From IMG/VR virus record IMGVR_UViG_3300012979_000036, positions 12,034-76,033 of that record: a stretch of 64,000 nt of DNA. One strand, 5' to 3'. The notes beneath the pieces were generated by a model, which saw only the letters and a program-made list of their open reading frames with translations, searched no databases and was not told the origin of the DNA. The position numbers were made by a program, and so were the translations under genes. Source of the DNA: a virus (taxonomy: Duplodnaviria; Caudoviricetes). Of this stretch, positions 2,298 to 29,229 are shown piece after piece (within the stretch, counting starts at the first letter, position 1; every line of letters starts with the position of its first letter).

Positions 2298-2607
2298 TCC
2301 TGTAAAAATTATTACAGCTTTGTGTAAATATCTTCCTGAAAAGGATAAATTTTATGCAGATGCTTTTATTATTAGAAGAGATTTTACATCTTTAAGAGAT
2401 TTGGTTGAATCTGATATACGAAAAGTAGAAAAGAATTTAACTAAAGAAAACCCAAAAGAAGAATTATTAGATATACAAATAGATAAATTAAGAACTCTTC
2501 TTAACAAAATTGATGAGTACTTAATTCTTTTAGGAGAAGATTTAACTCAATTTGTAAGTGAAGAAGATTTCAATGAAGAAGCAGAAAATTATGCAGATGA
2601 TTGGTAA
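2287..2607 (+). CDS. Hypothetical protein with acidic C-terminus
   Basis: 106-aa ORF overlapping the upstream stop; phage-like codon usage. Confidence 0.6.
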   Translation: MKISPVKIITALCKYLPEKDKFYADAFIIRRDFTSLRDLVESDIRKVEKNLTKENPKEELLDIQIDKLRTLLNKIDEYLILLGEDLTQFVSEEDFNEEAENYADDW

Positions 2608-2692
2608 AAAGAGTTTAAAAAATATATGGATTTAGTGTGTCTAATATAAATAAATATGTTAATGGTAAACAAAAACATCATAAAAAATATAT

Positions 2693-4965
2693 ATGGAAGT
2701 ACAAAGAAAAAGTTTAAAAACATTAGCATTAAATATTACAGAAGAAGAGTATCGTGCAGATCCAGCATATAGTTATTCAACACTTGCTAAATTTGATAGA
2801 GAAGGCTTTGAAAAGATTGATACTTTATTTGATAGAGTTGAAAGTCCATCTTTGTTATTTGGTAGCTGTGTAGATACTCTTCTTACTGATGGTCAAGAAG
2901 CATTTGATGCTAGATTTTTTGTTGCAGATTTTCCTGAAATGACAGATAATATTAAAAAGATTGTAGATTCTGTATTTAAAGCACATGGTGAAGAATATAC
3001 TTCTTTAGATAAAATACCAGATGCTCTTATTATAACAGTTACTGAAATGCTTGATTATCAAAAGAACTGGAGACCAGAAACTAGAGCAAAAGTAATTAGA
3101 GAAAAAGGTTCTGAATATTATAATCTTCTTTATCTTGCTGGAGATAAAACTGTTATTACATCAAGTTTTTATGCAGATGTTTTGGCTTGTATTGAAGAAT
3201 TAAAAACTTCAGAAGCAACTAAATGGTATTTTCAAGATGATGATCCTTTTGATGACAATATTGAAAGACTATATCAGCTTAAATTTAAAGGAGAATATGA
3301 AGATATTAATCTTCGTATTATGATGGATTTAGCAGTTGTTGATCATAAAAATAAGATTATATATCCTTGTGATTTAAAAACATCTTATAAAGAAGAGTAT
3401 AATTTCTTTAAATCCTTTATTGATTGGAGATATAAACAAATTAATTATATATCGTAATAAACTTATAAATAACAGTAATATTACCAAATATTATTCTTAT
3501 TTTTGTATAAATAATTAAAATTTATACAAATGGATAAGAGAAAATTAAATCGAAAAGTTTTTAAAATTTCTGATGAAGAAATTAAAAGAATGTATTTAGA
3601 AGGAAATAGTATGAGTGCTATTGCGAAAGTAGCACAAGACACTAAAGGATTAATGGCACTTCGTAATAAACTTCATGATTTAGGAGTTGATACTACTAAA
3701 AATATAAAACGTTACTCCTCGAAATTCTCAAAAGCGTTTAAAAAATATGATTTAGATGAGCATATTTTTGACACTGTTGATACGGAAGAAAAAGCCTATT
3801 GGCTAGGATTCTTATACGCTGATGGTTACAATCATGAAAGTAAAACTTGTATTTCTTTAAGACTGCAATACAGTGATATTGAAATTTTAGAAAAATTTAA
3901 AAGTTTCTTAAAAACTAATGTTCCTATTTATAAATGGACTAGAACTACACAAGTTAATAAAATTGAAAAAGATTATTGTGAAGTTAATATTTGTTCAGTG
4001 TATTTAAGCCAACAATTAGCTAAATTAGGCTGTGTACAAGGTAAAACTTATACTCTTGAATTTCCAGATTTTTTAGATAAAAATTTATATAATCATTTTC
4101 TAAGAGGTTATTTTGACGGAGATGGTTGTATAAGTGTTAAAGATAGACTTAATCGTAGAAAAAGAAATGGTAACTGTATGAACTATCAAGCCAATATTAC
4201 AGGAAGATATGAGTTTATACAAGAATGTGAGAAAATTATTTCAAAAAATACTAATATACCATTGGGTAAAATACAAAAATTTAAAAATAATTTTGCAGTG
4301 TCCATTCATTATAGCGGAAAATATCAAGTAACTAAACTTCTAAATTATTTATATAACAATGCTACTATTTATTTACAAAGAAAATACGATATATACAAAG
4401 AATATTGTATCTCGGCAGAGTAATCTGTAATAATAAAAAACTTCGTGAATTCAGAGAAACTCCTTATAGGACAACTCTGAGCCAAGCCTCAATGAGGAAG
4501 GTGCAACGACTATTCCGAAAGGAAGTACATTCAAGTGAATGGAAGCGCGAAGCCCCTATTTAGGGTGATGATATAGTCTAATCTGCGTGGTAACATGCAG
4601 CAGTTCATAAGAGAACGCATATAAATTAACGACTTATATGGAATACAACGAATATTCAAGCTCAATTATATTGGGAGATATTAAGACAAAATCTTAATAA
4701 AGATCCTTATTTTAAGGACTTTAAATTAGCAGATTATAGGTTTATTGTTGTTTGTAACAGAACTAGAAATCCTCTTGTATGGGAATACTATGATACTACA
4801 AGAGAAACTGATATGGTTTATGGTAAAGACAGACAAATTAAACTTAGAAATTGGAGAAGAATAGTTAAAGATTTAAATTATTATTTAACTCAGACTCCTA
4901 AAGTACCTATTGGAATTAATGTAGAAGGTACAAACGATATAATTCATTGGTTAAACAATTATTAA
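2693..4965 (+). CDS. PD-(D/E)xK exonuclease (RecE/DUF3799-like), intron-split: join(2693..3433,4651..4965), 351 aa
   Basis: Exon 1 has SYSTL, MMDL...CDLKT and ends ...DWRY. Exon 2 continues NIQAQLYWEIL... to TAA at 4963-4965, restoring the W-x-Y-x-IQA-x-LY motif. Confidence 0.85.
3498..3530 (+). promoter_or_regulatory. Bacteroidota-type -7 box (TATTTTTG, 3498-3505) inside an 11-bp hairpin that covers the endonuclease start region
   Basis: TAnnTTTG match; TTTGTATAAAT (3502-3512) / ATTTATACAAA (3520-3530) is a perfect inverted repeat ending on the A of the ATG. Confidence 0.65.
3530..4423 (+). CDS. Intron-encoded LAGLIDADG homing endonuclease (double motif)
   Basis: AYWLGFLYADGY and HFLRGYFDGDGC motifs; lies within intron A. 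Confidence 0.9.
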   Translation: MDKRKLNRKVFKISDEEIKRMYLEGNSMSAIAKVAQDTKGLMALRNKLHDLGVDTTKNIKRYSSKFSKAFKKYDLDEHIFDTVDTEEKAYWLGFLYADGYNHESKTCISLRLQYSDIEILEKFKSFLKTNVPIYKWTRTTQVNKIEKDYCEVNICSVYLSQQLAKLGCVQGKTYTLEFPDFLDKNLYNHFLRGYFDGDGCISVKDRLNRRKRNGNCMNYQANITGRYEFIQECEKIISKNTNIPLGKIQKFKNNFAVSIHYSGKYQVTKLLNYLYNNATIYLQRKYDIYKEYCISAE

Positions 4966-4966
4966 T

Positions 4967-7147
4967 ATGAATACTAGAAGTGAAGTTGTAAAGAGAGATG
5001 GAAGTATAGTACCATATCAACCTGAAAAGGTAAGAAAAGCACTTGAATCAGCATTTAGAAGTACTGGTATTGAACCTTGTACAGTAAATATTGATTACAT
5101 CGTAACCATTATTTCTAATATGTTTGAAAGAACTAACCCTATTCCAGTAGAAGATATTCAAGATTTTATAGAATATCATTTAATGAAAGATGGTTGGTTT
5201 GATACTGCTAAAGCATTTATACTTTATAGAGAAAAACATAAACATATTAGAGAATTTGCACAAAAGAAAATTGATTTTATTAATAATTATGCAAAAAGTG
5301 ATAATACTGCAGATGCTACTATAGATGACAATAGCAATGTAAGTAATCATAATGTAGCCGTTCTTAATGCTGAAATTCATAAAGAAGACAATGTAGCTAT
5401 TAATCTTAAAATACTTGAGAATAAACTTAAATCTTTATATCCAGATTTTGATGCTACACAAATGTATAAAGATTTTAATACTACAATGTATTTGCACGAT
5501 TCATCAAGCCAGATTGGTATGCCTTATTGTGTAGCAATTAGTTTATACCCTTTCTTACTTAATGGTATTAAAGATTTAGGAGGTTTATCAGCAGCGCCTA
5601 AAAATCTTGATAGTTTTTGTGGTATGTTCGTAAACCTTGTATTTGCTGTAGCGGCCCAATATAAAGGAGCTGTAGCAACACCAGGATTTTTCTTATGTAT
5701 GGATTGGTTCTGTAGAAAAGAATGGGGAGATGATTACCATCTTAATAAAGATAGGTGTATTTCTCAATTTACTAATAGAACAATTACTATACAAAAGCAA
5801 GTACATCAATATTTCCAACAAGTAACATATTCAATCAATCAGCCTTCAGCTGCAAGAGGTGCTCAAAGTGTTTTTTGGAATGTTTCAATATTTGATAAAG
5901 CATTTTATGAAACAATGTATGGAGATTTTAAATTCCCAGATGCATCTTCTCCTAATTGGGAATCCTTCAATTGGCTACAGAAAGAATATCTCCATTGGTT
6001 AAATCAAGAGAGACTTAAATGTATATTGACTTTTCCTGTTGTTTCAACGGCTCTTATTTATAAAAATAATAAATTTGTAGATGAGGATTTATATAAATAC
6101 GTTTGTAAAGAATATGAACAAGGTAATTCATTTTTTACCTATATAAGTGATTCTGCTGATAGTTTATCATCTTGTTGTAGACTTTCTTCTAAAATAGAGA
6201 AACCACAATTTAATTTTACTAATGGTCAACTTGGTGAAATGACTGGAAGTAAAAATGTTATCACTCTTAATTTAAATAGAATTGTTCAAGACTATTGTAA
6301 ACTAGCAAAATATAAGAAAGATTGTTTACTCAAAGATGATATAAATATTTGGTCAGAAGGATTTAAAGAATTTCTTAAAGAAATTCTTGAGAAAGTGTAT
6401 AAATATCAAACTGCTTATAACGAATGTCTTTATGAACTATTTGAAGCAGGAATGTTACCAGTATATTCCGCAGGTTTTATTAATTTAAAGAAACAGTATC
6501 TTACAATAGGTATTAATGGTCTTAATCAAGCTGCAGAATTTCTTGGATTTAATTGTAATAAAAATAAAGAATATAAAGATTTTTGTAATTTAGTATTTAC
6601 TACAATTAAAGAAGAGAATTCTAAACATAAGACCAAAAAAGAGATGTTTAATACTGAATTTACTCCTTGTGAATCTGCATCAATAAAACTATATAATAGA
6701 GATAAAAAAGACGGATACTGGGTTCCAGATGATACTAACTTATATGCTAGTTATATTTTTAAACCTAATGATACTGAAATATCTGTATTAGACAAACTTT
6801 ACTTACATGGTGCTGATTTTTGTGGAGACAATCTTGACGGAGGTTCAGCTGCTCACATTGGATTAGAAGAACATTTAAACGCGTCTCAATATGAAAAACT
6901 TATCAAATATGCAGCAGAAATAGGTTGTAAATACTTTACATTTAACGTACCTAATTGTGAATGTGAAGATTGTGGGTTTATAGCTAAACAACCTTTTACA
7001 ACTTGTCCTAAATGTAATAGTATAAATGTTAGTCTTTGGGATAGAGTTATTGGATATTTAACTAAAATTAAAAACTGGTCTAAAGGTAGAAGAATTGAAC
7101 AAAAAACAAGAGTGTATCATGGTAGACATACAGTATATTCAGAATAA
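4967..7147 (+). CDS. nrdD: Anaerobic (class III) ribonucleoside-triphosphate reductase with ATP cone
   Basis: N-terminal VVKRDG ATP cone, SCCRL, NTEFTPCES, Zn ribbon CEDC...CPKC, glycyl radical motif RVIGYL. Confidence 0.95.
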   Translation: MNTRSEVVKRDGSIVPYQPEKVRKALESAFRSTGIEPCTVNIDYIVTIISNMFERTNPIPVEDIQDFIEYHLMKDGWFDTAKAFILYREKHKHIREFAQKKIDFINNYAKSDNTADATIDDNSNVSNHNVAVLNAEIHKEDNVAINLKILENKLKSLYPDFDATQMYKDFNTTMYLHDSSSQIGMPYCVAISLYPFLLNGIKDLGGLSAAPKNLDSFCGMFVNLVFAVAAQYKGAVATPGFFLCMDWFCRKEWGDDYHLNKDRCISQFTNRTITIQKQVHQYFQQVTYSINQPSAARGAQSVFWNVSIFDKAFYETMYGDFKFPDASSPNWESFNWLQKEYLHWLNQERLKCILTFPVVSTALIYKNNKFVDEDLYKYVCKEYEQGNSFFTYISDSADSLSSCCRLSSKIEKPQFNFTNGQLGEMTGSKNVITLNLNRIVQDYCKLAKYKKDCLLKDDINIWSEGFKEFLKEILEKVYKYQTAYNECLYELFEAGMLPVYSAGFINLKKQYLTIGINGLNQAAEFLGFNCNKNKEYKDFCNLVFTTIKEENSKHKTKKEMFNTEFTPCESASIKLYNRDKKDGYWVPDDTNLYASYIFKPNDTEISVLDKLYLHGADFCGDNLDGGSAAHIGLEEHLNASQYEKLIKYAAEIGCKYFTFNVPNCECEDCGFIAKQPFTTCPKCNSINVSLWDRVIGYLTKIKNWSKGRRIEQKTRVYHGRHTVYSE

Positions 7148-11062: not shown

Positions 11063-11293
11063 ATGAAAGAAAAAGAAATGGTAAATCATCCACAGCATTA
11101 TGCTGTAAATGGTATGGAATGTATTGATGCAATGCTACAATTGTATGGTAAAGATGCTGTATTAAACTTTTGTATGCTTAACTCATTTAAATACCAATGG
11201 AGATGTAATAGAAAAGATAATTGCAAAGAAGATTTAGCTAAAGCTAGATGGTATCTTAATAAATATTTAGAACTACTTGAACAAGATGAATAA
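11063..11293 (+). CDS. DUF3310 (SaV-like) protein
   Basis: VNHPQHY...ECIDAM...KYQWR...EDLAKARWYL. Confidence 0.85.
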   Translation: MKEKEMVNHPQHYAVNGMECIDAMLQLYGKDAVLNFCMLNSFKYQWRCNRKDNCKEDLAKARWYLNKYLELLEQDE

Positions 11294-12833
11294 AGTTTTA
11301 TTTAATAAAGAAGCGTTTGATATATTAAAAGAAGGAGTCGATACATTATGTAATGCTGTTAAAGTTACTTTAGGTCCAAATGGTAAAAATGTTTTAATAT
11401 TTAATAACTATGGTGATGCCCATCTTACTAAAGATGGCATCACTGTAGCCAATAATGTTAAATCTGATGATCCTATTATTAATGGTATTATTAATGTTGT
11501 AAGAGAGGCTTCTGCTAATAATGCTAAATCTGTAGGAGACGGAACAACTACTACTTTAGTATTAACTCAAGCTATATTTAATGACGGTCTCAATCTTCTT
11601 GAAGAAGGAGTTAATCCTACTCTATTAAAAGAAGGAATGGATGAGGCTTTAAAAGATATTATTATTGAAATAGAAAAATCTTCTGAAAAAATTAACATTG
11701 ATGACAGAGAGAGACTTAAACAAATTGCTTATATATCAGCTAACAATAAACATGATGTGGCTGATACAGCAGTTGAAGCTGTGTCAATTGCAGGCGAATC
11801 GGGTGTTATTAGAATTGAAGATTCGAGAACTTCAGATACAACTGTTAAAGCTACAAATGGATTAACATTTGATAGAGGTTATTTATCACCATATTTTGCT
11901 AATGGAAATACGACAATTACTTATGAAAATCCTATTATTTTTGTATCGAATATAGAACTTACTAATAATACATTAGTAACTCTTATGAAAGATGCAAAAG
12001 CTGAAAATAAACCTCTTATTATTATAGCTCCTGATTTTAATGAGAATATATTTACAACAATGTATAAAAATCATATCGCTGGAGCTGTACAAATTTGTCC
12101 TATTAAATGTCCAGGATTTGCAGGTAATAGAGAACAATGGTTAGAGGATATTTGTATTTATTCAGAAGCAACTCTGTATAAAAATAATAATGTATCTCCT
12201 ATTAATAATATTGGTAATGTAGATAAAATTATTATTAGTAAAAACGAAACTTCTTTGATTCATAGTGATATGAGAAAAGGAGTATTTGAGCATCTTCGTT
12301 TGTTAGATAAACAGTTAGATGATGCTACAGAGCAATATGAAATTGATAATATCAGAGAAAGAAGAAGTAGATTAGCAGGTAATGTTGTAACTATTTATGT
12401 AGGAGCAACTACAGAGTTAGAACTTAAAGAAAAGAAAGACAGAATTGAAGATGCAGTATGTGCATTACAAACTGCTCTTAAAGGTGGTATTTCTGAAGGT
12501 GGTGGTATGACTTTTGCTAAAATAGGATTAAATTTAAATTGTTCAGAAGAAAACGAAGATGATTTTATAGATGGGTATAATCTTATTAAAAATATTTTAT
12601 TAAAACCATTTGAACAATTATGCGTTAACTCTGATAATAATTATTCTGTACTATCAGCAGCTTTATATGCAGCAGAAAATAAAGGCTTTAATTTTAAAAC
12701 TCAACAATGGGAAAACTTTAAAGAAACTGGTGTAATTGATCCTACTTTAGTTTTAAAGAATGCTATTACTAATGCTATAGGCATTGCTTCAAACTTATTA
12801 ACTACTAATTGTATAACTTATAAAGAATCATGA
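11277..12833 (+). CDS. groEL: Phage-encoded chaperonin GroEL-like (start 11277 or 11286)
   Basis: VTLGPNGKNV, TKDGITVA, GDGTTT, KCPGF, KDRIEDA, GGG and IDP motifs. Confidence 0.93.
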   Translation: MNKMNKVLFNKEAFDILKEGVDTLCNAVKVTLGPNGKNVLIFNNYGDAHLTKDGITVANNVKSDDPIINGIINVVREASANNAKSVGDGTTTTLVLTQAIFNDGLNLLEEGVNPTLLKEGMDEALKDIIIEIEKSSEKINIDDRERLKQIAYISANNKHDVADTAVEAVSIAGESGVIRIEDSRTSDTTVKATNGLTFDRGYLSPYFANGNTTITYENPIIFVSNIELTNNTLVTLMKDAKAENKPLIIIAPDFNENIFTTMYKNHIAGAVQICPIKCPGFAGNREQWLEDICIYSEATLYKNNNVSPINNIGNVDKIIISKNETSLIHSDMRKGVFEHLRLLDKQLDDATEQYEIDNIRERRSRLAGNVVTIYVGATTELELKEKKDRIEDAVCALQTALKGGISEGGGMTFAKIGLNLNCSEENEDDFIDGYNLIKNILLKPFEQLCVNSDNNYSVLSAALYAAENKGFNFKTQQWENFKETGVIDPTLVLKNAITNAIGIASNLLTTNCITYKES

Positions 12834-15418: not shown

Positions 15419-15802
15419 ATGGGACTTGATAATGGTATAATACTATATTGTTCTGATGAAGATTATCTTAAATTTCCATATCACGATCATAGAGATTTAG
15501 GACGAGAATATAAACATGTAGCATATTGGCGTAAATGTTGGAATATTAGAAGAGATATTATAAACAATCTTCATTATAAAGATGGAGATGTTTCTAATGT
15601 TGATTTAGAAGATGTTTCTACATTAATAAGATTACTTAAGCCTTATTTGAATGAAAATTATTGGAATGAAAACGATGATTCAATTTGGGATTATGATGAT
15701 ATGTTTGATAAAACATATGAAATACTTATTAATTTAGAGTATCTTAAGAAGTATTTAAAAGATAATCCTAGTGTTAAATGTGAATTTTACGATAGTTACT
15801 AA
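15419..15802 (+). CDS. Hypothetical protein
   Basis: 127-aa ORF (MGLDNGI...YWRKCW) in the operon. Confidence 0.65.
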   Translation: MGLDNGIILYCSDEDYLKFPYHDHRDLGREYKHVAYWRKCWNIRRDIINNLHYKDGDVSNVDLEDVSTLIRLLKPYLNENYWNENDDSIWDYDDMFDKTYEILINLEYLKKYLKDNPSVKCEFYDSY

Positions 15803-16749
15803 TGAAATTAATTGAAAGTTCTTATGAAATAATTCCTCAAGATGTAGGTCTTGAGGGAGTACTTAAACAAATAGAAATAGCAGCTCGTAATTGTTATAAA
15901 AGTGAGGCTTTTATTAAAGAAGGTTCTGCTGAAAAAATGGTTAATGCTCTTATTAAAAGAGGACATGGTAGCCCACTTGAACATGGTACTGTTTATTTGC
16001 ATTTTAAATATAACTCTCCCGTTAATGATATTAATTATTTAGAATATACAAAAATAGAGAGATTTTATAGAAACAATCCTTATTCTAAAGTTGTTAATAG
16101 GACAGAAGATCATTTTAATCACGATATTTATATAACTTCTAATTATAGAGTGTTAATAGAACACAATAGATTAAGTGATTTAAAATATATATGTGAGCCA
16201 ACAGAATACCATAAGAAAAGATATACTGTTAGATTTGTATGTTCTAGAAGTGTATCTCATGAAATAGTGAGACATAGATCCATGAGTTTTTGCCAAGAAT
16301 CCCAACGTTATGTTAATTACTCTCTTGACAAATTTGGTAATGAAATAACTTATATACTACCAAAATGGGCTATTGATAGAACAAATGATACAGCAGAAAC
16401 ATATGATCCATTAACTGGTTTTAGAAGAGATTATCTAATGGATATGCCTATTTTAGAAGCTGTAACTAAACATATGGTTTGTGAAGATAGAGCTATTTCT
16501 AATTGGATAGATTCTTTGAAAAAAGCAGAATCAGATTATTTCTATTTATTATGTGATGAATGCGGTTTAAAACCAGAAGAAGCTAGAGGAGTACTTCCTA
16601 ATGATTGTAAAACAGATATTATAGTAACAGGTTTTGCAAGTGATTGGGTACATTTCTTTAAACTTAGAACTGCTAATGGAGCACATCCTGATATGAGAAA
16701 TCTTGCTTGTCCATTAGAAGCAGAATTTAAACTTAAAGGGTTTATTTAA
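15802..16749 (+). CDS. thyX: Flavin-dependent thymidylate synthase
   Basis: GHGSPLEH, SHEIVRHRSMSFCQESQRY (ThyX motif), ARGVLP, FFKLR, HPDMR. Confidence 0.93.
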   Translation: MKLIESSYEIIPQDVGLEGVLKQIEIAARNCYKSEAFIKEGSAEKMVNALIKRGHGSPLEHGTVYLHFKYNSPVNDINYLEYTKIERFYRNNPYSKVVNRTEDHFNHDIYITSNYRVLIEHNRLSDLKYICEPTEYHKKRYTVRFVCSRSVSHEIVRHRSMSFCQESQRYVNYSLDKFGNEITYILPKWAIDRTNDTAETYDPLTGFRRDYLMDMPILEAVTKHMVCEDRAISNWIDSLKKAESDYFYLLCDECGLKPEEARGVLPNDCKTDIIVTGFASDWVHFFKLRTANGAHPDMRNLACPLEAEFKLKGFI

Positions 16750-17225: not shown

Positions 17226-20200
17226 ATGATTAATTGTAGCGTATTAACACCTCATGTTAAGGAGTTAGGTAAAAAACTTAATATAGAAAATGAGACTCTA
17301 TTGAGAGGTTTATTTACTGTATGGAGAAGTAATAACCCTGATAAACTTGATAATGAGATAACAGAAGCTGATTTAAAAGAATTATTAAAAGAAAATTCTC
17401 AAATACTAGAAACTAAACCAATTAAAGTTTCTAGATTAGAAACAGATCCTAATATTATTTCAATTAATGTAAGTACTCCTAGAGCTAAACTTAATGCTTC
17501 TATAGATGCTAATCTTCAAGCTAAAAGAACAAAACTTATTGCAGATACATTTTATGATGTATGCGATGAAGCTCTTGAAGAAAAGAAAGAAGAACTAAGA
17601 GAAAAAGGAGATTTTCAAACTATTATGGAGTGGGAGTCTTCTGTATATGGTAGAGCTAAAGGTATTAAAACACTTCCTGTTAAAGATTTATTAAGAAGAC
17701 TTCAAAACAGATTTAGAGAAGCAGCTTCTATTAGTGAAGAATGGCAAAAGATTTGGGATAATTTTGTACCTCTTCTTGAAGATGCTTGTGTTCAAATTGA
17801 AAGAGATTCTGGTTTAAGACTTACTATTAAATCTTCTCTTACATCTGATGGTACTAATACTAAAAGAGAATTAGGAGGCACATTTACAGAAATTACTGAA
17901 GATGAAGATCCTAATATGCAAGATAATACTGAAGGAGAAGCCACTGATAATAATGAGCTTTGTACTTACAAAGCTAGACATACAGATCCTCATGCTACAG
18001 TATCTCTTACAACTAAACATATATTAAGAAGAATACCTCAATTAAATGAAGATTCCACTGTAAGAGAAGATGATTTAGGAAATATTGAATATGTTAATGA
18101 AGAATATGCTCATGCTGTTTTAGTACAAAAGTTATCAGAAATGAGCGATCCTGATGATTTTGCTATATTTGAAAGAGATGAAGAAGGTAATATTATCAAT
18201 CCTAGATTTCCTTTATTAGAACAAATTGCTGTAGAAGCTCCTTGGGTAACAGGTCTTATTGATATACTAGAATCAGAACCTGAAAAAATACCTGCTTTTT
18301 ATCACGACTTTAGGAATAGTTTTGTATCTTATTATATGTATAAGAATGGTATTCTTATGCCTATGAATAGATCTAATATAGTAGGTTCTACTATGGCTCA
18401 AATTAAGAGAGATTATGAGCAAGGTAATACTCTTACTTCTCATAGTATCTATGATAATATGGGTAAAATTAATCTCAATTCTGTAGAACCTCTTTCTGCT
18501 TTAAGTGTTGAAATTGAAGATTTAGTAGACGACTTAGATTCAGAAAATGAAGAAGAAGTAGCGATCGTTCTTGATAAAGCTGTAGAACTATTTAAATCTA
18601 TAGGAATGAATGTAAGAGGTAATGCTCTTAAATCTCTTTTATTAAAAGATACAAACCATACAGCTTTTAAAAATGCTCTTTCTACGGTAGATTTTATTAT
18701 AGAGCATCTTGATGAAGTAGGAGACGAACACTTGGTAACAAAGTTTAATTCTTCATATGTAGAACTTAGTAAACTTGTAGGAGATGTTTCAGATCTTGAA
18801 AACATGGCTTCTTTTAGACAAGGTAAGAAAACATATTATTCATATTCTGCTCCTAATTTTGCTGACAATCAAATAGCACAATTGAAGAAAGATTCTGCTC
18901 CTACATATATTGATAGAGAATTTGGATTTGATGAGTTCTTTTTTAAGAATGGAGAATATAGAAATAAATGGTTAGCTTGGTTAAGAACTGATGAGAATGT
19001 TAGAAAAAATCTTGCTACATTTGATTTAAAGACTATTAATTGGTTTGGAGAAAATGTAGATTACACAGAATGGACTCCCGAATTGATTGATAAAGCTTTT
19101 ATATCAGCTTATTTTTCAGCAGGTTATAACGAAGCATCTCAAACACAGTATGCGTATTATCACTATCCTATCTTCTCAGATTCTCCTGTAGCTAAGTTTA
19201 TTAAAATGCCTAGATTTACAGGTAAAATTGAAGAAATTAAAGGCAATGTTCTTCCTCTCTTAAGAGAAGTAGTACTTCAAGAATGTGATAGAATACAACT
19301 GGTGCTTGATAGAGAAAAAGCAGGAGCCGCTAAAATATCTAATTTTGATGGTAAGCGAGGTAAGCAATTCTGTTTCTTCCCACAATTAAATGGAGTTAAT
19401 CCTGAAACAGGTAATAACTATTTAACTGACATTATTGAATTTAATAAAAGTGGAGATGTTGAAGGTAGAAATGCTTACATAGAAAAAGCTCTTGATAAAA
19501 TAATGAGAGTTAATTTTATTAAGTTCTCACTTACTACAAATGCACTTACCGAAGATGAACTTAAAACTTTGGGTCATGGTCATTTAACTGCTAAAGAAGC
19601 TTTAGAAGAGTACTATTGGAATAGTGTTTATGCTCAAACGCAACTTATCCAAATGACTGCTTGTGATCTAGCTTTTTATAAAAATGCTGTAGATTTTCAG
19701 AAAAGATACAAACAAGTATATGCTGCTGGTAAGAGATTGTTTACTAATTCTAAATATGGTAGAAAATTTGAAAATGTAATCTATCTTAAAGACTTAGAAG
19801 TTACTTATTCTAAATTAGAAGCACTTAAAACTGCTCTCGAAAAAGCAGTATCTGAAGGTAGAATTTCTAAAATGGACAGAGATGCTATTTTAGATTCTTA
19901 CAGAAAAGTAAATGCTACAGATGCTCAAGGTTTTAGAAGTATGACTTCATATAGAGCTGTACTTGATATGATGGGTCAATGGAATCCTGTAATGGAAGAT
20001 GCTCTTAATAAGATTAAAGCAGGTCAATGGGATATGTCTCATTATAATATAGTATGGCAAACTATCAAACCTTTCATGTTCGGTACTACTGTAAAACCAA
20101 ATGGTAAAGGTGGTAAAATGAGAGTCATGCATCAAAATAAAGACTCTGAATTATTATTATTAGCAATGTTTGATGTTATATCAGCAGATGCTTATTCTCC

Positions 20201-23200
20201 TCAAATAAGAGCTCTTAATGAGTTTATGGAGAGAAATAATATTGATTTGGCTCTTTATGAATCAGGATGTAAAGTAGGTAATCAAGGTATTATTGATTTA
20301 AATTACAGTCAAGCAAGAATTAATGCTTTATACGAAGCAGGAAAATATACTTTTAATACAGGTAAAACTATTGAAATAGTTAAAAAAGAAGGAGAATCTC
20401 CTATTAAAGCTATTAAGAACACTTTAGATGGACTTGTAGTTAGAGGTAAAATTACTTCAGAAGAGTATGATGAAATATTTGAAGAATATCTTCCTTTAAC
20501 TGGTAGAGAAGTATATGAAACTCTTGAACAAGCTGTTAATGTAAATGAAGTACAAGATGCTGATTTTAACAGAGGTGAAAGACCTAATGATACTCAATAT
20601 TTCAATCCTGAAGTAGTGCACACATTCTCATATAATGATTATATGATTGCACAGCCTACTCCTGAACATTTAATGGATACTGAAACAATTTTTGGTTCAC
20701 AATTTAGAAATCTTATTATAGCAGATTTACCTATTGATTTTGAAATTGAAGTTAATGGTAATAAGTATAATAGAAAAGAAATAATTGATTTATATAATAG
20801 TTTAATTATTGATAACCTTCTTGATAGTTTTGATAAATTAAAAGAAGAATTTAAATCTATAGAAGCAGTACAACAAAAATTAAGAAGTATGGTTGAGGGT
20901 AATCCTAAGTTTGAAAAAGATATTCTTCAAGCTTTAGAGATTGTAGAAATAACTCATCCTGTTACAGGCAATAAAGTTAAAACTTTCAATATTCCTCTTA
21001 ATAATCCTAGTACTACTGAAAAGTTACAAGAACTTATTTTATCAGCATTTAAAAATGGTATAACTAAACAAAAGATTAAAGGAGGTAATGCTATTCTTTG
21101 TTCTAATGTTGGTTATACTGATGAACTTAAAAGAATTGTAGATGCAAATGGTACTTTGATAGGATATGAGTGTTATCTTCCTGCTACAAGTAAAAAATGG
21201 TTTGAACAACTACTTACTGAAGTAGAAGACGATACTGGTAATACTTATCAAATGCTTGATATAGAAAAACTTGATGATGAACTTAAAGATGCTTTAGGTT
21301 TTAGAATTTAATCGAAAGATTGGGATTCGCTTGGAAAGAAATTTCCTTGAATAATAAATTGGGTGAATTGCTGGAACATCCTTAAAAAATTGCATATTTC
21401 AAATATATTTAGTATCTTTGAATGTAAAAAGATATTAAAGTATATGGAAGAAGAATTATTTATTGTAAAATGTAGAATGGGTGAATTTCGTGATTATAGA
21501 ATTACGAAAAGTGGTAAAATGTATAGCTACAGACAAGGTGGTATTTTAAAACCATTATCTATAGTATTAGATAGTAGTGGTTATCCTATTGTAAGAATGA
21601 GAGATGATAATTATAAAACTCGTACAATAGCGGTACATAGAATTGTAGCAGATATGTTCATACCAAATCCTAATAATTTGGAATGTATTAACCATAAAGA
21701 CGAAGTTAAAACCAACAATTGTGTTGATAATCTAGAATGGTGTACAAAAGCTTATAATAATTGCTATAATGATAAAGCTGTTAAAATAGGTTTAAAATTA
21801 CGAGATTCTAATCCTAGAAAAAGAGCAGTAAATCAAATAGATGATAAAGGAAATATTTTAAACACTTTTAAATCTATTAGAGAAGCTGCGAGATTTTTAG
21901 GAGATGAAGATAGAGATTCTGCAATTTGTAATAGTTTAAAAACTGGTCAAAAGAGATATGGTTATTATTGGAAATATGCTCATATTGAGGACAATCAGCA
22001 GCCAAGCTAAACTTAGGATAAAGGAGTTTAGAAGGTTCAGAGACTAGGAGAGTGAGCCTAACAATAATCTCTCCCACGAGTGCCCAACACCTTAACGTAA
22101 AGACGAAGGTGAAGATATAGTCCGCGCTTTATGGTAACATAAAGAAGTCAGAATAAAGAGTCTGACGATAACAAACCGACCAACCGAACATAAATACAGT
22201 ATGGTTCCTTTAATTATTAAAGGATTCTTGCCTCAACAAAACGGTTCATCAATAATGGTAGCTAAAGAAATTACTACTGCTTCTGGATGTGATTTTGACG
22301 TTAAACAAGTTGATGTCATTAAACCCCTTTAACTGCTGGAAAATCTTAACAAGTAATGTTGAAGACAATCAGCAACGAAGCCCTAATGGGAACGCTCAAC
22401 GACTATCGAAAAGATAATATAGGAGAAATACCTATATGAATAACTGAGTAGAGTACACTTAAATGTGGAAATGGGGGGCAATTTACAAAGGTTAACACAA
22501 TGTAAATTGAAGATATAGTCTCATCTTTATGGAAACATAAAGTTAAGAAAATGGACAAACTCTTCTTAATGTTGTATAATTTCTATATAGGAAAAGATGG
22601 TAAAGCTCATAAAGTTGCACCTCCTAATCCTAAAGAAAAACCAACTGAAGAATGGACTAAAGAAGAAAGAGATAACATGATAATGGACATCTCCAGAGCT
22701 ATTCTTACTCATCCTGCTATGGGATGGATTAATTCAAAACCTGGTAGTTTTGATACTCTCAAAAGACAAGCTAGAAAAGCTAGAATATTAGAATCTCCTA
22801 ACATAATGACTAAGTTTTATCAAACTTATGGGATTCAATCTGGTGCTGATTTTGAAGCTAAAATTGAGAGTATGGATTTAGACGAATTAACAGATTTTGT
22901 AAATGAATATTCTGAAGAAATTAATCCATTAGAACTTACTACTTTTAAAAGATTTCATAAGCAAAATATGACTGGTGGAGCATTGATTGGTATTTATGCT
23001 AATAATACTACAATGCAAGCTAAATTTCAAGAAACATCATTAGCAATTAAAGATGCTTATACTATAACAGTTAATGGTGTAACATACAAAAGTTTATCAG
23101 ATATTTACTCTCAAGATGGCAAATTAATATCTTTTAATTGTTCTGAATCATCAGCTGCATCAGTAGATAATGTTAAAGACCCTGTACTTGCAGATTTAAT

Positions 23201-25334
23201 GCAAGATACTAATACTGCTAAAATTCTTTGTTTACTTCTTAGAACTGGTATGCCTATTAAAGATGCTTGCGCTTTCTTTAATATTCCTATGATTAGAAAT
23301 TATATTAGAAATGGTGGAGATTTAAATAAATTTGATGGGTTAGCAAAGCAAATTTTACAAGTTATTGAAGATGTATTTGCTTATAGTGATAGCAATAAAG
23401 CTAAAACTATTGCTAGCTATAAAAAAGATAATATTAACACTTCTGAAATAATTGATCATATTGCATATAGTTATTTTACACCAACAGGAGAACAAGAAAC
23501 TTTAAAAGATTTAGTTAGATATTTAATGTCAGATGCTTCTGTTGAACTTAAAAAAGAAAAAGTGGCTAAAGCTGGTTATGCAACAGAAGATGCAAAAGAA
23601 TTTTTAATAAATTATCTTAGACAAGATGCTAAATATTTAGCAGTATTTGGCAACATTGCTAAAATTTCTGAAGATTTAAGAAAACTTACTAAAGTTTCTA
23701 GAGCAGACTCTCCTAACGGTGCTATTAAACATAATATTGAAGAGGCTGTAATTCAAGTAAGAATGGTAGATTTAATTCATATTAAAGAAGAAGAATCTAC
23801 TCTTGAAGGATTAGGACAGACTCTTAAAAATGGTAGAGTTAAATTTAGCGATTCTAGAGCCAAAATGAAAACTACTTTTATGAGGAGTCCTCTTGCTAGA
23901 TTACAAGCATTTCATACATTAGGTATTGAATTACCTCTTCAAATGGTTGGTAAATATTTTGTACAAACTAATAAATGGATGCAAGAGAAAACTTTAGAAC
24001 TGTTTAATCAGTCTCCTAGTGGTGTTTTAAGCGCTAATCAATTAAAATCTTTTTATCAAGCATTAACTTATTATTATCTTACCAGTATTGCTACATTTGG
24101 TAATGATGGTATACATACTTTTGAAGAGAAAAGAGATTGGTATATTTATGAGTTTCCTAAATATTTTGTAAATCTTAGAAATGAACATCCCGAATTAAAT
24201 CAGAATTCTGTTATACAAAAACTTGAAATTGAATCAGGTAAAGTATTAATGAAGAGAGGTGGTAAACTTACTCCAACACAAAGACAAATGATTTCTAATA
24301 CCATTACAAATCTTTTGTATGGAGATGAGATGCATATTAAACTTGCTGCAGATTTAATGCTTTATAGTTTCTATACTACAGGTATGAATTTTGGACCTGA
24401 TAATTTTGGTATGTTCTTTAATGTAGATTTTTATAATCAATTTCCTGAATATGTAGATGCTCTTAGAAAGATGCAGTTTTATGTAAATGAGCACGCTAAT
24501 AATAATTTGATGCAAAATTTTATGGATCAATTTTATGCTATACATGGAACTTACTTTACAGCTCATAGAGAAGCTCCTAAAAAAGGTGTAATACCAGATC
24601 CAGAGTTGCAGTTTGAAGTTAAATCAGTACAGAATACTAATATTAAAGGTAAGCCTTGGAAATATCTTACTATTAATTATCAACTTGAAGAAGAGGAAGA
24701 AGTTGAGAAAGATGGTGAAAAAAAGAAAGTTACTAAAACTGTTAAGTATTCTAAACTTTATAAACTATCTAATGTAACTAATGAAACAGCTACTTATCAC
24801 GAAATAGGAAGTATTTATGATCCGTTTACAGGAAAAAATAGATATAATGCAGCTCTTACTGCTTCTGAATTAACTCAAATAGTTCAATCAGAAGAAACTA
24901 AAAAGAAAGCTGAAGAACAAAAGAAATATTCTTATAAACGTGGTGCTAGAAAAGCTGAAGTTGAAAGACTTAAGGATGAAAGATTAGGAGATATTAACAT
25001 GCTTAATGCTCTTGCTTTTATGGAAGGTCAAAACTTTGAAGAAATACCTGATAATTTACCTCCTGCTTATACAGGATATGAAGGTATAAATGCTGAAGAT
25101 GCTGTTAGATATTTAGAAGAAAATAATAATGAAGGAATTAATGATGATGCTGCTACAGGATCGTTTGATTTAAGTCAGTTTGAAGGAGATAATTCTGAAT
25201 TTGATGATTCTATATATGGTCAATTTGATAATATAGATTTAGAATCATTATTAGAAGGATTAGAACTTCCTGAAAATATTGAAGATTACTTACCAGAAGA
25301 AGGAAATAACCAGTTAGAAGACCCAATGTGTTAA
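17226..25334 (+). CDS. Giant virion-packaged DNA-dependent RNA polymerase, 3 exons: join(17226..21308,22180..22302,22554..25334), ~2328 aa (first junction +/-1 nt)
   Basis: Splicing gives GFRI|PTEHKYSMVPLIIKGFLPQQNG...GCDFDV|DKLF, i.e. the double-psi-barrel R-IPT and DxDxD motifs of crAss vRNAPs; upstream NATDAQG and HQNK motifs. Confidence 0.88.
21404..21444 (+). promoter_or_regulatory. -7 box (TATCTTTG, 21413-21420) in the 5' arm of a hairpin covering the HNH start
   Basis: About 16-bp stem (21404-21419 / 21428-21444, one G.U and one bulge) that reaches the A of ATG 21444. Confidence 0.65.
21444..22010 (+). CDS. Intron-encoded HNH homing endonuclease with C-terminal NUMOD1-like domain
   Basis: VHRIVADMFIPN...INHKDEVKTNNCVDNLEWCT...N; likely start ATG 21444 (the track GTG 21363 lies in the intron core). 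Confidence 0.9.
   Translation: MEEELFIVKCRMGEFRDYRITKSGKMYSYRQGGILKPLSIVLDSSGYPIVRMRDDNYKTRTIAVHRIVADMFIPNPNNLECINHKDEVKTNNCVDNLEWCTKAYNNCYNDKAVKIGLKLRDSNPRKRAVNQIDDKGNILNTFKSIREAARFLGDEDRDSAICNSLKTGQKRYGYYWKYAHIEDNQQPS
22303..22553 (+). ncRNA. ORF-less group I intron C (251 nt) inside the RNAP DxDxD motif
   Basis: Exon TGACGTT pairs with IGS GATGTCA (22312-22318, U.G at the splice site); P3 CCCCTTT/AATGGGGG; P4 TGCTGG/TCAGCA; P7 GACTA/TAGTC; ends in G22553. Confidence 0.92.
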
Positions 25335-25335
25335 T

Positions 25336-28300
25336 ATGAAATGTACTTATATACCAAGTAAAGGAGCTAATTTATTTAGGCAACTTAAAAAACAGTTTGG
25401 TTATGAATTAGCAAAAGATATATTTTTACGAGCTATAAGTCCAAGATTCATTGAAGATTTTAGGAAAACCCTCAGTTTAGATGCTGAGGGTATTCCTTCT
25501 TTTGAATCTGTAATGAATAATTCTTGGATGAAAAAATTTATAGGAGATACTCGTATTCTTGAAAGTTTAAATACCTTTAAACCATTAGAAGATACTTTAG
25601 AAAACTTTAATATTTGTTTAGAAGAAGCTTATAGATTTAATAATAATGATGATTATGATAGCTATATAGCTACTGTAGAATATACTGATACTGGAAAGAT
25701 TGTAACTAAAGTATCTCCTAAAACTACAGAAGCTGTAGAAAAGTTTAATAATCAATATGGTACATACAAACTTAATAAATCCTTAGCTAATACTTTTGAA
25801 TCTATAGGAGTTACTGTAGGAATGCTTACAGAAGCAGAAGTAAATGCTGGTAGAATTGGTAATATTGATTTTTCTAAAGCTAAAAGAATTGCTCAAGATT
25901 TTAAATCTATTATTAGAGTAGCTAATAATATGGAAGGAGCACAAGCTATTAGTGAAGAATTTTCTCATTTGGTGGTAGCATTATTTAGACAAGAACCTTT
26001 AACTGTAAGAGCTTTAAATACTTTAAAAAATAATGAAGAAGCTCTTAGAAAGGTCTTAGGAGAGGATTATCAAGATGTGTATGACTATCATAATGGTAAT
26101 TTAGAATTAATAGCAGAAGAAGCTTTAGGGCAACTTCTTCAAAAAAATTTGATTGCTCAACAAATAGAAACTGGTTATACTTCTTTTTTTAACAGAGTTA
26201 AAAATTTTATTATTAACAAGTTTAAAAATTTTAATTTATCAGATATAGATAAAGCTATTCAAGATGCTGATAATGCTATGAATAGCTTAGCTAAAAAGAT
26301 TACAACTAATACTCTAGAAGCAACTAAAGAAGATATAGAAAATATTAATAGAGACGATTCTTTTAATGCTCTTTCTAAAAGAGTTGAAAGAAATATTAAT
26401 ATTCTTAAAAATGCTATTAAAGTTGAAACTAAAAGATTTAAAATCAATACAGATGTAGATGCAGAGTCTATTAAACTTCTTATATCAGAACTTAGAAAAC
26501 ATAGTGGTGAAACTAGTAATACTGTAGCAGGTTTAGGTATATATGCTGAAAATGCAATAGAAAATCTTAAAGAATTATATAATGGTTTAAGTAATACTAA
26601 TGGTATGGATCTTAATGCTAGAGCTATACAATTAAGAAAAGTATTACAATATTTACAATCGTACGGTAAATTTATAGAAGAACTTACATCAGCTTATAAT
26701 GAAGAAAGAGATTTAGAAGATAATATTTTTAATATTAAAGTAACTGAAGATACTACTTTAGGAGATTTATTTGATATATTAAATGGTTTAAATACTAAAT
26801 TAAGTAATGAATTTAAAAATCAATCTGTTACTTTATTTTCTGAATTTATAGAAGGTTATATTGATAAGCTTGATATTGAAGCTAGAGAACTTATTCAAAC
26901 TGCTACTGGAGATATAGGTTTTATTGATAGGTGGCTTCAAAGTATGGAAGAATCATCTGATGTTCTTTTAAAAGTTTTTGATTTGGTTTCTAAAAAAGCT
27001 AAAGCTAAAGCACGACAATCTACTATTAAATCTATTCAAGAAATTCAAGCTTGGATGAAAAAAGCTGAAGAATTAGGATATACTGATTTTGAATGGATGT
27101 TTGAGCATAATAGCGAAGGGAATAAAACTGGTAATTATATTAGTGAAGTAAATTTAGGTGAATTTGAATATCAATTAGATCTTTTCCTAAAAAATTTGGA
27201 TGCCAAATACGGAAAAAACCCTGCTGGAGAACAAGCTAGAAAAAAGATAGCAGAAAAGAAAGCTTGGTTAGAAGCTAATTCTTTTGAGTATGCTAATAAA
27301 AGGTATCCTAAAAATGATGTTTGGAAAAACGATGAATATGTAAGTTTATCTACTGAACAAAAAACTCTTTTAAGAGAATTTAATGCTATAAAAGCTGAAC
27401 TTGATAAACTTATTCCAGAAAGTAAATTAACATCAAATTTAGCAATTCAAATTAGAAAATCTAAAGGTCAGAGATTTATAGAGTCCGCTACATCTCCTTC
27501 TCAAATATTTGAGAATATTAAAAATGGTTTTAGAAGTGAGTTTTATGATTCTGAAGATGACGATCAAATATTTGGTGCTACTGTAAGAAGAGGTCTTACA
27601 AACTTTGATGATACTGAATATATGGTTTTACCTGTACAATATACTAATAGATTAAAAAATCCTAATGAATTATCTACAGATGTTGTAGGCTCTTTAATGT
27701 CTTATGCTTTCATGTGTCATCAGTACCATGAATTAGAAAACATTATTAATCCTATGGAAATAGGTAGAACTATTGTTAAAGAAATGCGTAAAACTAAAAA
27801 AACTAGAGGTAAAAATCCTTTAGTTGAAAGAGTTGAAGCATTAGGAGATACTTACTATAATGATATTGTACATACTGAAGGTACTAATGCAATAAAGAAA
27901 CTTGATGATTTCTTTGAAAGTCAAATTTATCAAAGATATATTAAAGACGAAGGTGTTATAGGTAAATTTAATGTTGCTAAAACAGTTAATAAAGCTTTAG
28001 AATATTCTGCTATGGCTCAGTTAGGTTTTAACTGGTTAGCTAATATTGCCAATGTTGCACAAGGTATTTGTATGGCTAATATTGAAGTAGCAGCAGGTCA
28101 ATACTTTACTTTTACAGAACTTTTAAAAGCAGATAAAGAATATATTTCTTTAATGAAAGGTTTTATTCCTGAAATAGGAAGTAGAGTTAAAACTAACAAA
28201 CTTTCTTTAATAGGTGATTATTTTAATCTAAAACAAGATTTTGACAAGCAAATTAAACGTTCTAATAAAAGAAATATTCTTGAAAGATTATTTGGAAGTC

Positions 28301-29229
28301 ATATTGCTTTTTTAGGCCAAGAGGCTGGAGACCATTGGTTATACAACAGATCTGCAATTGCTCACATGATGCATTATCAAATTAAAATTAATGGTGTTCA
28401 AATGAGTGTTTGGGATGCTATACAAATACAAGATGCTAAAGTAGGTCAAGGTATTAAAGAAGTACATATGGATGAAGCTTATAATTTAGATGGTACTAAA
28501 TTTGATAAAGACATTTTTGGTATGCAAATTGCTACAATAAACCATAATTTATTTGGTATTTATAATACCGAGGATGCTAATGCTGCTAACAGAATTGCTT
28601 TAGGTAGAATGTTAATTCAATATAGAAAGTGGATGGTACCTCTTTACAAAAGAAGATTCGGCGCTGAATCTGTAGATATAACTACTGGAGAAAAATATAG
28701 AGGTTATTATAGAACTCTTATTAAAGTTATACAAGAGCTTAGAAGAGGGGAGATTCAATTTAATATGCTTAAAGATCAATTATCTGCAAGAGATTTGCAA
28801 GATATAAAAAGAGCCGTATTTGAAATTGCTCAGTTCTTAGCAGCTTGGGGAGCATCAGAATTTATTGCTTGGCCAGATGATAAAGATAGACCTTGGGCTT
28901 TAAAGTTAGGAGAATACGCATCTCACAGATTGGCTCATGAGTTGGGAGGATTAACTCCTTCTCCAGCAATGATTAATGAGACTTTAAAGACTGTTAAAAC
29001 TCCAATTGCAATGTTGTCAGCTATACAAAATACAGCTAATTTAGCTACAAGTTTATTAGATCCTAGAGATTATATAGATGAAATACAAAGTGGTCCTTAT
29101 AAAGGAATGAGTACTTTAGAAAGAAATTTTGTTAAAGCCCCATTACCAGGAATCGCACAATATAGACAAATTGATAAGTTTGTAGGAGATTTAGATAATA
29201 GTATTATGTATTATTTAAGACCGTATTAA
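25336..29229 (+). CDS. Large virion (cargo/ejection) protein with a degenerate zincin-like region
   Basis: 1297 aa directly after the vRNAP; SEEFSHLVV...AEEALG resembles an inactivated HExxH domain. Confidence 0.7.
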   Translation: MKCTYIPSKGANLFRQLKKQFGYELAKDIFLRAISPRFIEDFRKTLSLDAEGIPSFESVMNNSWMKKFIGDTRILESLNTFKPLEDTLENFNICLEEAYRFNNNDDYDSYIATVEYTDTGKIVTKVSPKTTEAVEKFNNQYGTYKLNKSLANTFESIGVTVGMLTEAEVNAGRIGNIDFSKAKRIAQDFKSIIRVANNMEGAQAISEEFSHLVVALFRQEPLTVRALNTLKNNEEALRKVLGEDYQDVYDYHNGNLELIAEEALGQLLQKNLIAQQIETGYTSFFNRVKNFIINKFKNFNLSDIDKAIQDADNAMNSLAKKITTNTLEATKEDIENINRDDSFNALSKRVERNINILKNAIKVETKRFKINTDVDAESIKLLISELRKHSGETSNTVAGLGIYAENAIENLKELYNGLSNTNGMDLNARAIQLRKVLQYLQSYGKFIEELTSAYNEERDLEDNIFNIKVTEDTTLGDLFDILNGLNTKLSNEFKNQSVTLFSEFIEGYIDKLDIEARELIQTATGDIGFIDRWLQSMEESSDVLLKVFDLVSKKAKAKARQSTIKSIQEIQAWMKKAEELGYTDFEWMFEHNSEGNKTGNYISEVNLGEFEYQLDLFLKNLDAKYGKNPAGEQARKKIAEKKAWLEANSFEYANKRYPKNDVWKNDEYVSLSTEQKTLLREFNAIKAELDKLIPESKLTSNLAIQIRKSKGQRFIESATSPSQIFENIKNGFRSEFYDSEDDDQIFGATVRRGLTNFDDTEYMVLPVQYTNRLKNPNELSTDVVGSLMSYAFMCHQYHELENIINPMEIGRTIVKEMRKTKKTRGKNPLVERVEALGDTYYNDIVHTEGTNAIKKLDDFFESQIYQRYIKDEGVIGKFNVAKTVNKALEYSAMAQLGFNWLANIANVAQGICMANIEVAAGQYFTFTELLKADKEYISLMKGFIPEIGSRVKTNKLSLIGDYFNLKQDFDKQIKRSNKRNILERLFGSHIAFLGQEAGDHWLYNRSAIAHMMHYQIKINGVQMSVWDAIQIQDAKVGQGIKEVHMDEAYNLDGTKFDKDIFGMQIATINHNLFGIYNTEDANAANRIALGRMLIQYRKWMVPLYKRRFGAESVDITTGEKYRGYYRTLIKVIQELRRGEIQFNMLKDQLSARDLQDIKRAVFEIAQFLAAWGASEFIAWPDDKDRPWALKLGEYASHRLAHELGGLTPSPAMINETLKTVKTPIAMLSAIQNTANLATSLLDPRDYIDEIQSGPYKGMSTLERNFVKAPLPGIAQYRQIDKFVGDLDNSIMYYLRPY

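Follow-up and report, generated by a model that had tools for sequence, protein, structure and literature searches.

Architecture of the interrupted gene

This study concerns a split gene on the plus strand of a 64,000-nucleotide stretch of phage DNA, referred to here as the window, which covers positions 12,034 to 76,033 of the IMG/VR virus record IMGVR_UViG_3300012979_000036. The source record is linear, 76 kb long and has an estimated completeness of 75%, and the window is assigned to a crAss-like phage with a genome of ~100 kb; among annotated phages, Steigviridae are its nearest relatives (Beta/Steigviridae-like). The gene, which is assigned below to the virion RNA polymerases of crAss-like phages, appears in the window as two large open reading frames (ORFs). 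The first one (17226-21311) encodes 1361 residues and ends with G-F-R-I in front of its stop codon, and the second one, called mechanically at 22551-25334, encodes 927 residues and begins with M-D-K-L-F, its ATG at 22551 being formed by the final three bases of an intron, intron C. Within the 1.24 kb between them, there are a mechanical ORF of 215 residues (21363-22010) and a brief open segment (22180-22302), and the group I intron model of Rfam matches twice.

When positions 17226-21308, 22180-22302 and 22554-25334 are joined, a single open frame of 2328 codons is obtained, and the exons are free of stops and frameshifts. These coordinates follow the boundaries of a first-pass annotation of the window, which was made from the sequence alone, and since the last base of a group I intron is by rule a G, the upstream intron, intron B, moves one base to the left. 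Neither of the two large ORFs contains a DFDxD motif, which is the catalytic motif of this polymerase family; DFDVD arises only across the junction of exon 2, a micro-exon, and exon 3. Introns B and C are separated by 124 nucleotides, and the features of the locus are as follows.

17226..21307, plus strand: exon 1 of the predicted virion RNA polymerase gene, 1360 codons and the first two bases of an Ile codon, ending with G-F-R-I
21308..22178, plus strand: intron B, group I, 871 nucleotides, matching Rfam RF00028, with an endonuclease ORF in the P5 loop
21444..22010, plus strand: putative intron-encoded HNH homing endonuclease, 188 residues from ATG 21444, matching Pfam HNH_3 and PHROG 59
22179..22302, plus strand: micro-exon, the last base of the Ile codon and 41 codons, from P-T-E-H to D-F-D-V
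22303..22553, plus strand: intron C, group I without an ORF, 251 nucleotides, matching Rfam RF00028, between the Val codon and the third Asp codon of DFDVD
22554..25334, plus strand: exon 3, 926 codons and a stop codon, the first residue being the third catalytic Asp (D-K-L-F)
25336..29229, plus strand: downstream neighbour, a homologue of crAss001 gp49 over its full length, 1297 residues

We consider it highly probable that this locus is a three-exon polymerase gene interrupted by two mobile homing group I introns, and not a gene whose interruptions serve as a regulatory switch. The underlying mechanism, a gene of three exons from which two introns splice themselves, is very likely.

Continuity with uninterrupted homologues

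A family profile was built from 22 uninterrupted homologues, and the three exons of the window match consecutive parts of it, with no gap and no overlap: 2-1554 for exon 1 (1884 bits), 1555-1595 for the micro-exon (88 bits, E=6e-29) and 1596-2436 for exon 3 (930 bits). The spliced protein also aligns unbroken to crAss001 gp50 (2412 residues) and to the RNA polymerase of IAS virus, both of which are encoded by uninterrupted genes. Exon 1 matches residues 5-1445 of gp50, and the micro-exon alone continues at residues 1446-1486 with 80% identity (E=5e-21); the E-values of the window exons in BLAST against gp50 range from 1e-69 to 5e-21. A tblastn search with exon 3 leads to the “putative RNA polymerase” of crAss001 and its relatives.

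The same joined sequence is found in four IMG/VR loci (L003-L006) and in eight metagenomic proteins with 43-90% identity to the window protein, all of which are continuous across both junctions. Among the five closest of these proteins, with 71-90% identity, four have exactly the 41 micro-exon residues of the window, and the fifth shows a single F-to-Y change within the Asp motif in an otherwise identical peptide. Since the profile is tiled without a gap and the same joined sequence occurs in uninterrupted homologues, the three pieces represent one gene.

Identity of the polymerase

The family profile matches chain A of the PDB entry 6VR4, the DNA-dependent RNA polymerase gp66 of phage phi14:2, with E=3.9e-32 in the blocks 808-1032 and 1217-1523. 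The micro-exon aligns to gp66 residues ~1322-1364, a region that includes 1361-DFDID-1365. All three Asp residues of this motif are required for the activity of gp66, and its fourth position is Ile or Val in crAss-like enzymes (bioRxiv 10.1101/2020.03.07.982082). The motif of the window is DFDVD and thus has Val in the fourth position. The family profile was needed to establish the link to gp66, because searches of the PDB with the single sequences of exon 1 and exon 3 (phmmer) gave chance matches only. Pfam and PHROGs contained no match for exon 1, the micro-exon or exon 3, and a megablast search of the polymerase gene against 50,697 phage records gave no match. The statement of the first-pass annotation that automated annotation would miss the polymerase entirely holds in so far as these two databases remain blank for both ORFs and no single ORF contains DFDxD, but it goes too far, as tblastn with either ORF reaches genes annotated as “putative RNA polymerase”.

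By these alignments, the gene is assigned to the crAss-type virion RNA polymerases of the gp66/gp50 family. Enzyme gp66 is packaged in the virion and transcribes the early genes (bioRxiv 10.1101/2020.03.07.982082), and crAss001 gp50 has been detected in virions by mass spectrometry (PMC10172136). In the window, the product of the downstream gene is 32% identical along its whole length to gp49 of crAss001, a virion cargo protein associated with the RNA polymerase, and this neighbour keeps its order in the related loci L007, L008 and L009, so that the polymerase gene block can be regarded as conserved. Orthology and the conserved gene block suggest that the polymerase of the window phage would likewise be packaged in the virion and would transcribe early genes. 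The profile alignment to gp66 points to two double-psi beta-barrels in one chain. If the segment from R-I-P-T to DFDVD corresponds, as we presume, to the segment from NRAPTLH to NADFDGD of bacterial beta-prime, the micro-exon is essentially the catalytic strand-loop of the beta-prime-like barrel.

Close to the N-terminus, the polymerases of the closest relatives (L007:226-1133, P0084 and P0203-P0204) are longer by about 300 residues, with a match to Kinase-PolyVal (PF18762). This insert falls between residues 60 and 73 of the window protein, which does not contain it, and more distant homologues bear NADAR, ART-PolyVal, cpYpsA or DUF7831 domains in its place. The N-terminal region of the polymerase therefore looks like a swappable effector module.

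Intron class, splice sites and the intron-encoded endonuclease

Both interruptions exceed the gathering score of 50 bits of the Rfam model RF00028 (group I intron). Intron C matches the full-length model (22293-22542, 79.9 bits, E=4e-20), and intron B matches its 3' two thirds (21886-22144, 74.3 bits, E=2e-18). By these matches both are group I introns, which would be expected to splice themselves in vivo. For intron C, U22302 is aligned to the conserved U.G pair of the model in P1 (GACGUU paired with UUGAUGUC), which is exactly where the 5' splice site is predicted. At its other end the intron finishes with G22553, directly before the GAC codon of the third Asp, and the insertion is in phase 0 at DFDV/D (a slash within a motif marks the site of an intron here and below).

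The 5' part of intron B (P1, P2 and P3-P5) was read by eye and was recovered on folding of the form from which the ORF had been deleted. Its P1, by eye, is a hairpin with a GAAA loop and three consecutive U.G pairs, and fits splicing after U21307. At the 3' end, the micro-exon start of the first-pass annotation is preceded by A22179, and A22179 by G22178; as group I introns end in G, intron B was placed at 21308-22178. With this revised boundary the Ile codon is rebuilt as AU/A and the R-I-P-T protein sequence is unchanged. Contigs of related strains contain a single C at the junction of intron B (Ile ATC), which is compatible with either boundary.

An unconstrained minimum-energy fold recovers P1, P3-P6, P8 and P9 of intron C and, with the ORF removed, P2-P6, P8, P9 and P9.1 of intron B. 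In the Rfam alignment, additional hairpins separate P7 (5' strand) from P3 (3' strand) in both introns, which suggests that the introns are subgroup IA-like, IA being the common phage type of group I intron. The exon frame closes soon after each 5' splice site, with an in-frame TAA at 21309-21311 in intron B (+1 codon) and, after nine codons, a stop at 22330-22332 in intron C (+10 codons). Such early stops are the usual arrangement by which ribosomes are kept off the ribozyme core. A search of the window for transfer RNA genes found none, so there is no sign of stop-codon recoding as an alternative way of reading through.

In its positions and classes, this analysis supports the first-pass annotation to a large extent. 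It had proposed a crAss-type virion RNA polymerase encoded by three exons, with two group I introns flanking a micro-exon of 41 codons, one at R-I/P-T and the other between the second and third Asp of the catalytic motif. All of this was confirmed by the single frame of 2328 residues, the exact tiling of the profile, the two Rfam scores, the match to 6VR4 and the occurrence of the orthologue gp50 in virions (PMC10172136), with the boundary of intron B refined by one base. It had also suggested an alignment with phi14:2 gp66 and intron-less crAss polymerases; this proved to be collinear, and the homologues keep a continuous segment from RIPT to DFDxD.

Intron B contains the ORF of a putative I-HmuI-like HNH homing endonuclease, with a predicted activity and target. 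Its product matches Pfam HNH_3 (PF13392) with 28.8 bits against a cutoff of 24.8 bits, and PHROG 59, “HNH endonuclease”, with E=3e-30. The mechanical ORF begins with GTG 21363 and has 215 residues, but the likely start is ATG 21444, which gives 188 residues, the same length as the gene called in the related locus L008. The ORF lies in the loop of P5, and its last codons overlap strands of P5, P4 and P6. Relatives of intron B without an ORF were found in read contigs, in which 21376/82-21987/90 are replaced by 3-11 bases.

Presence and absence of the introns among relatives

All four combinations of presence and absence of the two introns were found among the window and its relatives.

Window: intron B present with an HNH ORF; intron at the C site present without an ORF
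L007 (exons 86-89% identical in nucleotides): intron B absent; intron at the C site present, 881 nucleotides, with a LAGLIDADG_2 gene
L008 (exons 72-75% identical in nucleotides): intron B present with an HNH ORF; intron at the C site absent
P0083-P0087 (71-90% protein identity): intron B absent; intron at the C site absent

Intron B of the window and that of L008 occupy the same site and are 90.8% identical over all 871 nucleotides, whereas the exon sequence adjoining them is only 67-77% identical. RI/PT is also occupied in L013, by a B-type intron that has an HNH ORF and whose ends are almost those of intron B; the protein of exon 3 in this locus shares only 30% identity with its counterpart in the window. 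Since the identity of the intron is far above that of the adjoining exons, intron B at least has, by this comparison, moved between diverged phages. The ends of intron C, on the other hand, are 74-79% identical to those of the L007 intron, which is below the identity of the exons, and the distribution and identities of introns B and C indicate separate histories.

An insertion hot spot across metagenomes

A search with exon 3 in a collection of 5.8 billion proteins gave 80 cluster representatives of nearly the length of exon 3. About 47 of the 80 begin inside or just after DFDxD, namely with M followed by DK, VDK or IDK, DVDK or FDVDK, or at the next internal Met, and about 17 begin at the RI/PT site. 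The same search gave 420 longer homologues of exon 3, and all those inspected, the 22 of the alignment and the eight closest proteins, are uninterrupted through the motif. The converse search, made with the end of exon 1, gave 94 cluster representatives of nearly the length of exon 1. Of these, 27 continue past the motif, about 55 end within it (after D, DF, DFD or DFDV) and six end at G-Y-R-I. In most of the ~55, the last codon before the stop is a Lys codon contributed by an intron whose first bases are AAA. The share of split protein clusters can roughly be put at one in eight, which is a crude value, as both searches scored only the 8000 candidates sharing most words with the query.

For each insertion position, one contig was checked. 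Introns with a LAGLIDADG_2 ORF interrupt the motif at D/FDVD in L010, at DF/DVD in L012, at DFD/VD in L011 and at DFDV/D in L007 and L009. In these five loci, the intron ORF lies between the two halves of the gene (~5100-6000 or 2100-3000, depending on the locus) and conserved core strings are present. The staggered positions all fall within the 15 bases that encode DFDxD, the least variable ones of the gene, and the second hot spot, RI/PT, is located 41 codons upstream.

Nearly all introns bearing LAGLIDADG ORFs begin with AAA, and the upstream ORFs accordingly end with D, DF, DFD or DFDV followed by K. The staggered LAGLIDADG introns look like one family in which the guide sequence has been re-set. 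The core of intron C (window 22333-22546) was found in the runs X1, X4, X6 and X7 at a summed depth of 40-124, compared with ~3-18 on the exons. Many of the contigs matching this core are unrelated and have different flanks, which indicates that, in the same animal-gut samples, the family of intron C is abundant at sites other than this one.

Joined exons in read contigs

Contigs that join exon 1 to the micro-exon (21307/22180, with one base in between) and the micro-exon to exon 3 (22302/22554) were found in two bovine-gut metatranscriptome runs of one study and in one run of unknown type, and one contig of 5.2 kb contains all three exons joined. They confirm the junctions. The contigs are derived from strains that have diverged by 3-6% from the window (~95% identical). 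No claim about habitat is made, because these runs contain only small shares of the window sequence.

Proposed mechanism and its weighing

In the mechanism considered here, the polymerase gene would be transcribed, both introns would fold and excise themselves, and the exons would be ligated. Intron B would splice after U21307 and end with G22178, and intron C would splice after U22302 and end with G22553. The resulting messenger RNA of 2328 codons would again encode R-I-P-T to D-F-D-V-D, the core of the beta-prime-like barrel, in one piece, while the stops immediately after each 5' splice site would keep ribosomes out of the ribozyme cores. The two-barrel enzyme would then be packaged into the virion and, after injection, transcribe the early genes. 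The HNH enzyme of intron B presumably cuts or nicks intron-less alleles in co-infecting phages, whereupon repair would copy the intron into them. Intron C would be a member without an ORF of a family whose other members bear LAGLIDADG endonucleases. The position of the introns at catalytic codons would be explained by the fact that homing endonucleases select invariant targets. The signature of homing introns is seen in the dispensability of the introns in close relatives, a history decoupled from that of the gene, two families of endonucleases, the staggered sites and a second hot spot.

Several observations speak against this interpretation or limit it. The exact junction of intron B is ambiguous by one base, and the P10 pairings, read by eye, are short (3-4 base pairs). 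Intron C is without an endonuclease, and its own mobility is unexplained. Among the introns of the relatives, Rfam gave a full match in L008 and a partial one in L010, but no group I match in those of L007, L009, L011, L012 and L013. Rfam misses most introns that contain ORFs, because the inserted ORFs break the model, and the assignment of the missed introns to group I is suggested by the logic of the exons, the endonuclease ORFs and the conserved core strings. The joined contigs are no proof of splicing, since intron-less alleles exist at the same divergence from the window and spliced RNA cannot be separated from them. A co-conversion tract next to intron B was looked for by sliding identity between the window and L008, and there was no rise upstream of the intron (67-77%). 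Downstream, identity rises to 90-92%, but the same rise is seen between L007 and L008 although L007 has no intron B, so that it reflects constraint on the micro-exon. Finally, a selfish origin of the introns may be compatible with a secondary benefit.

We also considered whether intron C could have hitch-hiked on the endonuclease of intron B. This idea found no support, as a co-conversion tract is absent around intron B.

Among the other explanations, the one that survives best extends homing to a weapon in competition. According to it, the introns are selfish and their endonucleases cut the virion polymerase gene of diverged, intron-less crAss-like phages in the same cell, whose targets are too diverged for efficient repair, while the occupied site makes the carrier immune. 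A precedent is gp210 of phage PhiPA3, where an HNH endonuclease from an intron in a virion RNA polymerase gene lowers the fitness of the competitor PhiKZ (bioRxiv 10.1101/2023.09.30.560319). The B-type intron is nearly identical at 72-75% exon identity and is present even at 30% protein identity, which implies that its endonuclease meets diverged targets, and each of the four staggered insertions would destroy neighbouring target sites. However, plain homing predicts the same pattern equally well, and intron C of the window has no endonuclease at all. We therefore regard this explanation as possible, but tentative. A competitive role of the window introns similar to that of PhiPA3 gp210 is possible by analogy.

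This thought can be carried further. The segment of 45 codons around the catalytic loop, with endonuclease introns at five positions (RI/PT and four in DFDxD), might be a battleground on which such introns serve as weapons and shields when gut phages compete within one host cell. We find this rather doubtful and base it on analogy; if it applied, a phage would be shielded at every site that it has filled and would cut its rivals there, and the tandem occupation in the window would amount to stacked immunity.

The first-pass annotation had seen in the two splicing events a possible regulatory checkpoint, which would time or limit the active virion polymerase, for example to the late phase, or would allow an active enzyme only under conditions that let the ribozymes fold. 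Its premise was right in that both introns must go for an active enzyme to be made, as the micro-exon carries the segment from the R-I/P-T site to the first two Asp of DFDVD, and both introns have intact cores. Skipping of the micro-exon would moreover stay in frame (123 nucleotides) and give a catalytically dead protein, although this is a formal possibility only. The conclusion drawn from it was not supported. Close relatives manage without one or both introns, the history of the introns is separate from that of the gene, and the same codons have been struck at four positions by introns bearing endonucleases, which fits the choice of targets by such enzymes. No regulatory element was seen at the locus, and we know of no phage group I intron shown to be a dedicated regulator. 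A checkpoint thus appears very unlikely, and the two interruptions are better read as homing introns.

That no splicing takes place, the gene being broken in a defective genome or by an assembly artefact or its two ORFs acting as separate subunits, is hardly credible, for although cellular polymerases carry the two barrels on two chains and gene callers list the two ORFs separately, neither ORF contains DFDxD, the exons are open throughout, the 41 codons that both lack are present undamaged and in the right frame, flanked by two complete ribozymes, and the same kind of architecture occurs in independent assemblies from other samples.

Relation to known systems

The system of PhiPA3, in which the HNH endonuclease gp210, which damages PhiKZ, is the product of a group I intron that immediately follows conserved Asp codons of a virion polymerase gene (bioRxiv 10.1101/2023.09.30.560319), resembles the window in that an HNH group I intron is found in the gene of a virion-packaged RNA polymerase beside Asp codons of the catalytic region, with a target conserved in related phages. 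However, the PhiPA3 enzyme is the multisubunit polymerase of a jumbo phage of Pseudomonas, and a single intron interrupts its beta-like subunit. In the window, the enzyme is predicted to be of the single-chain gp66 type, and its beta-prime-like barrel is split by two introns that enclose a micro-exon.

Within the same order of phages, group I introns were described in Delta and Zeta crAss-like phages, where they occur in core genes (MCP, PolB, primase), a LAGLIDADG intron endonuclease is shown in the figure of the transcription gene block, and RNA polymerase ORFs of the Zeta group that are broken within DxDxD were attributed to “unknown expression mechanisms” (Yutin et al., 2021, PMC7886860). 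The introns in that study were found via their endonuclease domains. In contrast to those cases, the breaks in the window could be resolved to exact splice sites, one of the two ribozymes contains no ORF, and four staggered positions are documented. Regarding the polymerase itself, the spliced product of the window is collinear with gp50, with an identity of ~25-50% depending on the block, and shares several profile blocks with gp66, including the DFD(I/V)D segment, gp66 being detectable by profile only. Unlike the window gene, the genes of gp66 and gp50 are uninterrupted.

Classical examples of phage group I introns are T4 td with I-TevI, the DNA polymerase gene of SPO1 with I-HmuI and orf142 of Staphylococcus phage Twort with three introns. 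They share with the window introns of the subgroup IA type in essential, conserved genes, with and without ORFs, with several introns per gene and a sporadic presence. The window differs from them in its host gene and in that an exon of 124 nucleotides with most of the catalytic loop is bracketed by the introns.

No new mechanism is described here, as earlier work has already reported introns from conserved genes of phages, from crAss-like phages and from the gene of a virion polymerase. At least in the window phage, breaks of the DxDxD type are ordinary introns, and such introns probably explain some of the “unknown expression mechanisms” of crAss-like phages. Where a polymerase gene of these phages seems disrupted in its catalytic motif, it can be reconstructed in the annotation by looking for small ribozymes, including those without an ORF, which are invisible to searches for protein domains. 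The codons of the catalytic loop in the most abundant group of gut phages are a recurrent target of mobile introns, with five positions and two families of endonucleases, and offer a natural system in which intron homing and possible interference between phages in the gut could be studied.

Further observations in the window

A LAGLIDADG ORF of 297 residues (3530-4423; Pfam LAGLIDADG_1 and LAGLIDADG_3) follows an ORF of 254 residues in the region 2693-4965, in which Rfam gave no group I match at the gathering threshold. A third group I intron is located on the minus strand at 55863-56100 and is, with 92.8 bits to RF00028, the strongest Rfam match in the window. It lies upstream of the capsid gene block, which includes the major head protein (50935-52434, PHROG 11589). 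Just upstream of the polymerase gene, the window contains a GroEL-like chaperonin at 11277-12833 (PHROG 5725, E=2e-124) and a ThyX-type thymidylate synthase at 15802-16749 (Pfam Thy1, E=2e-37).

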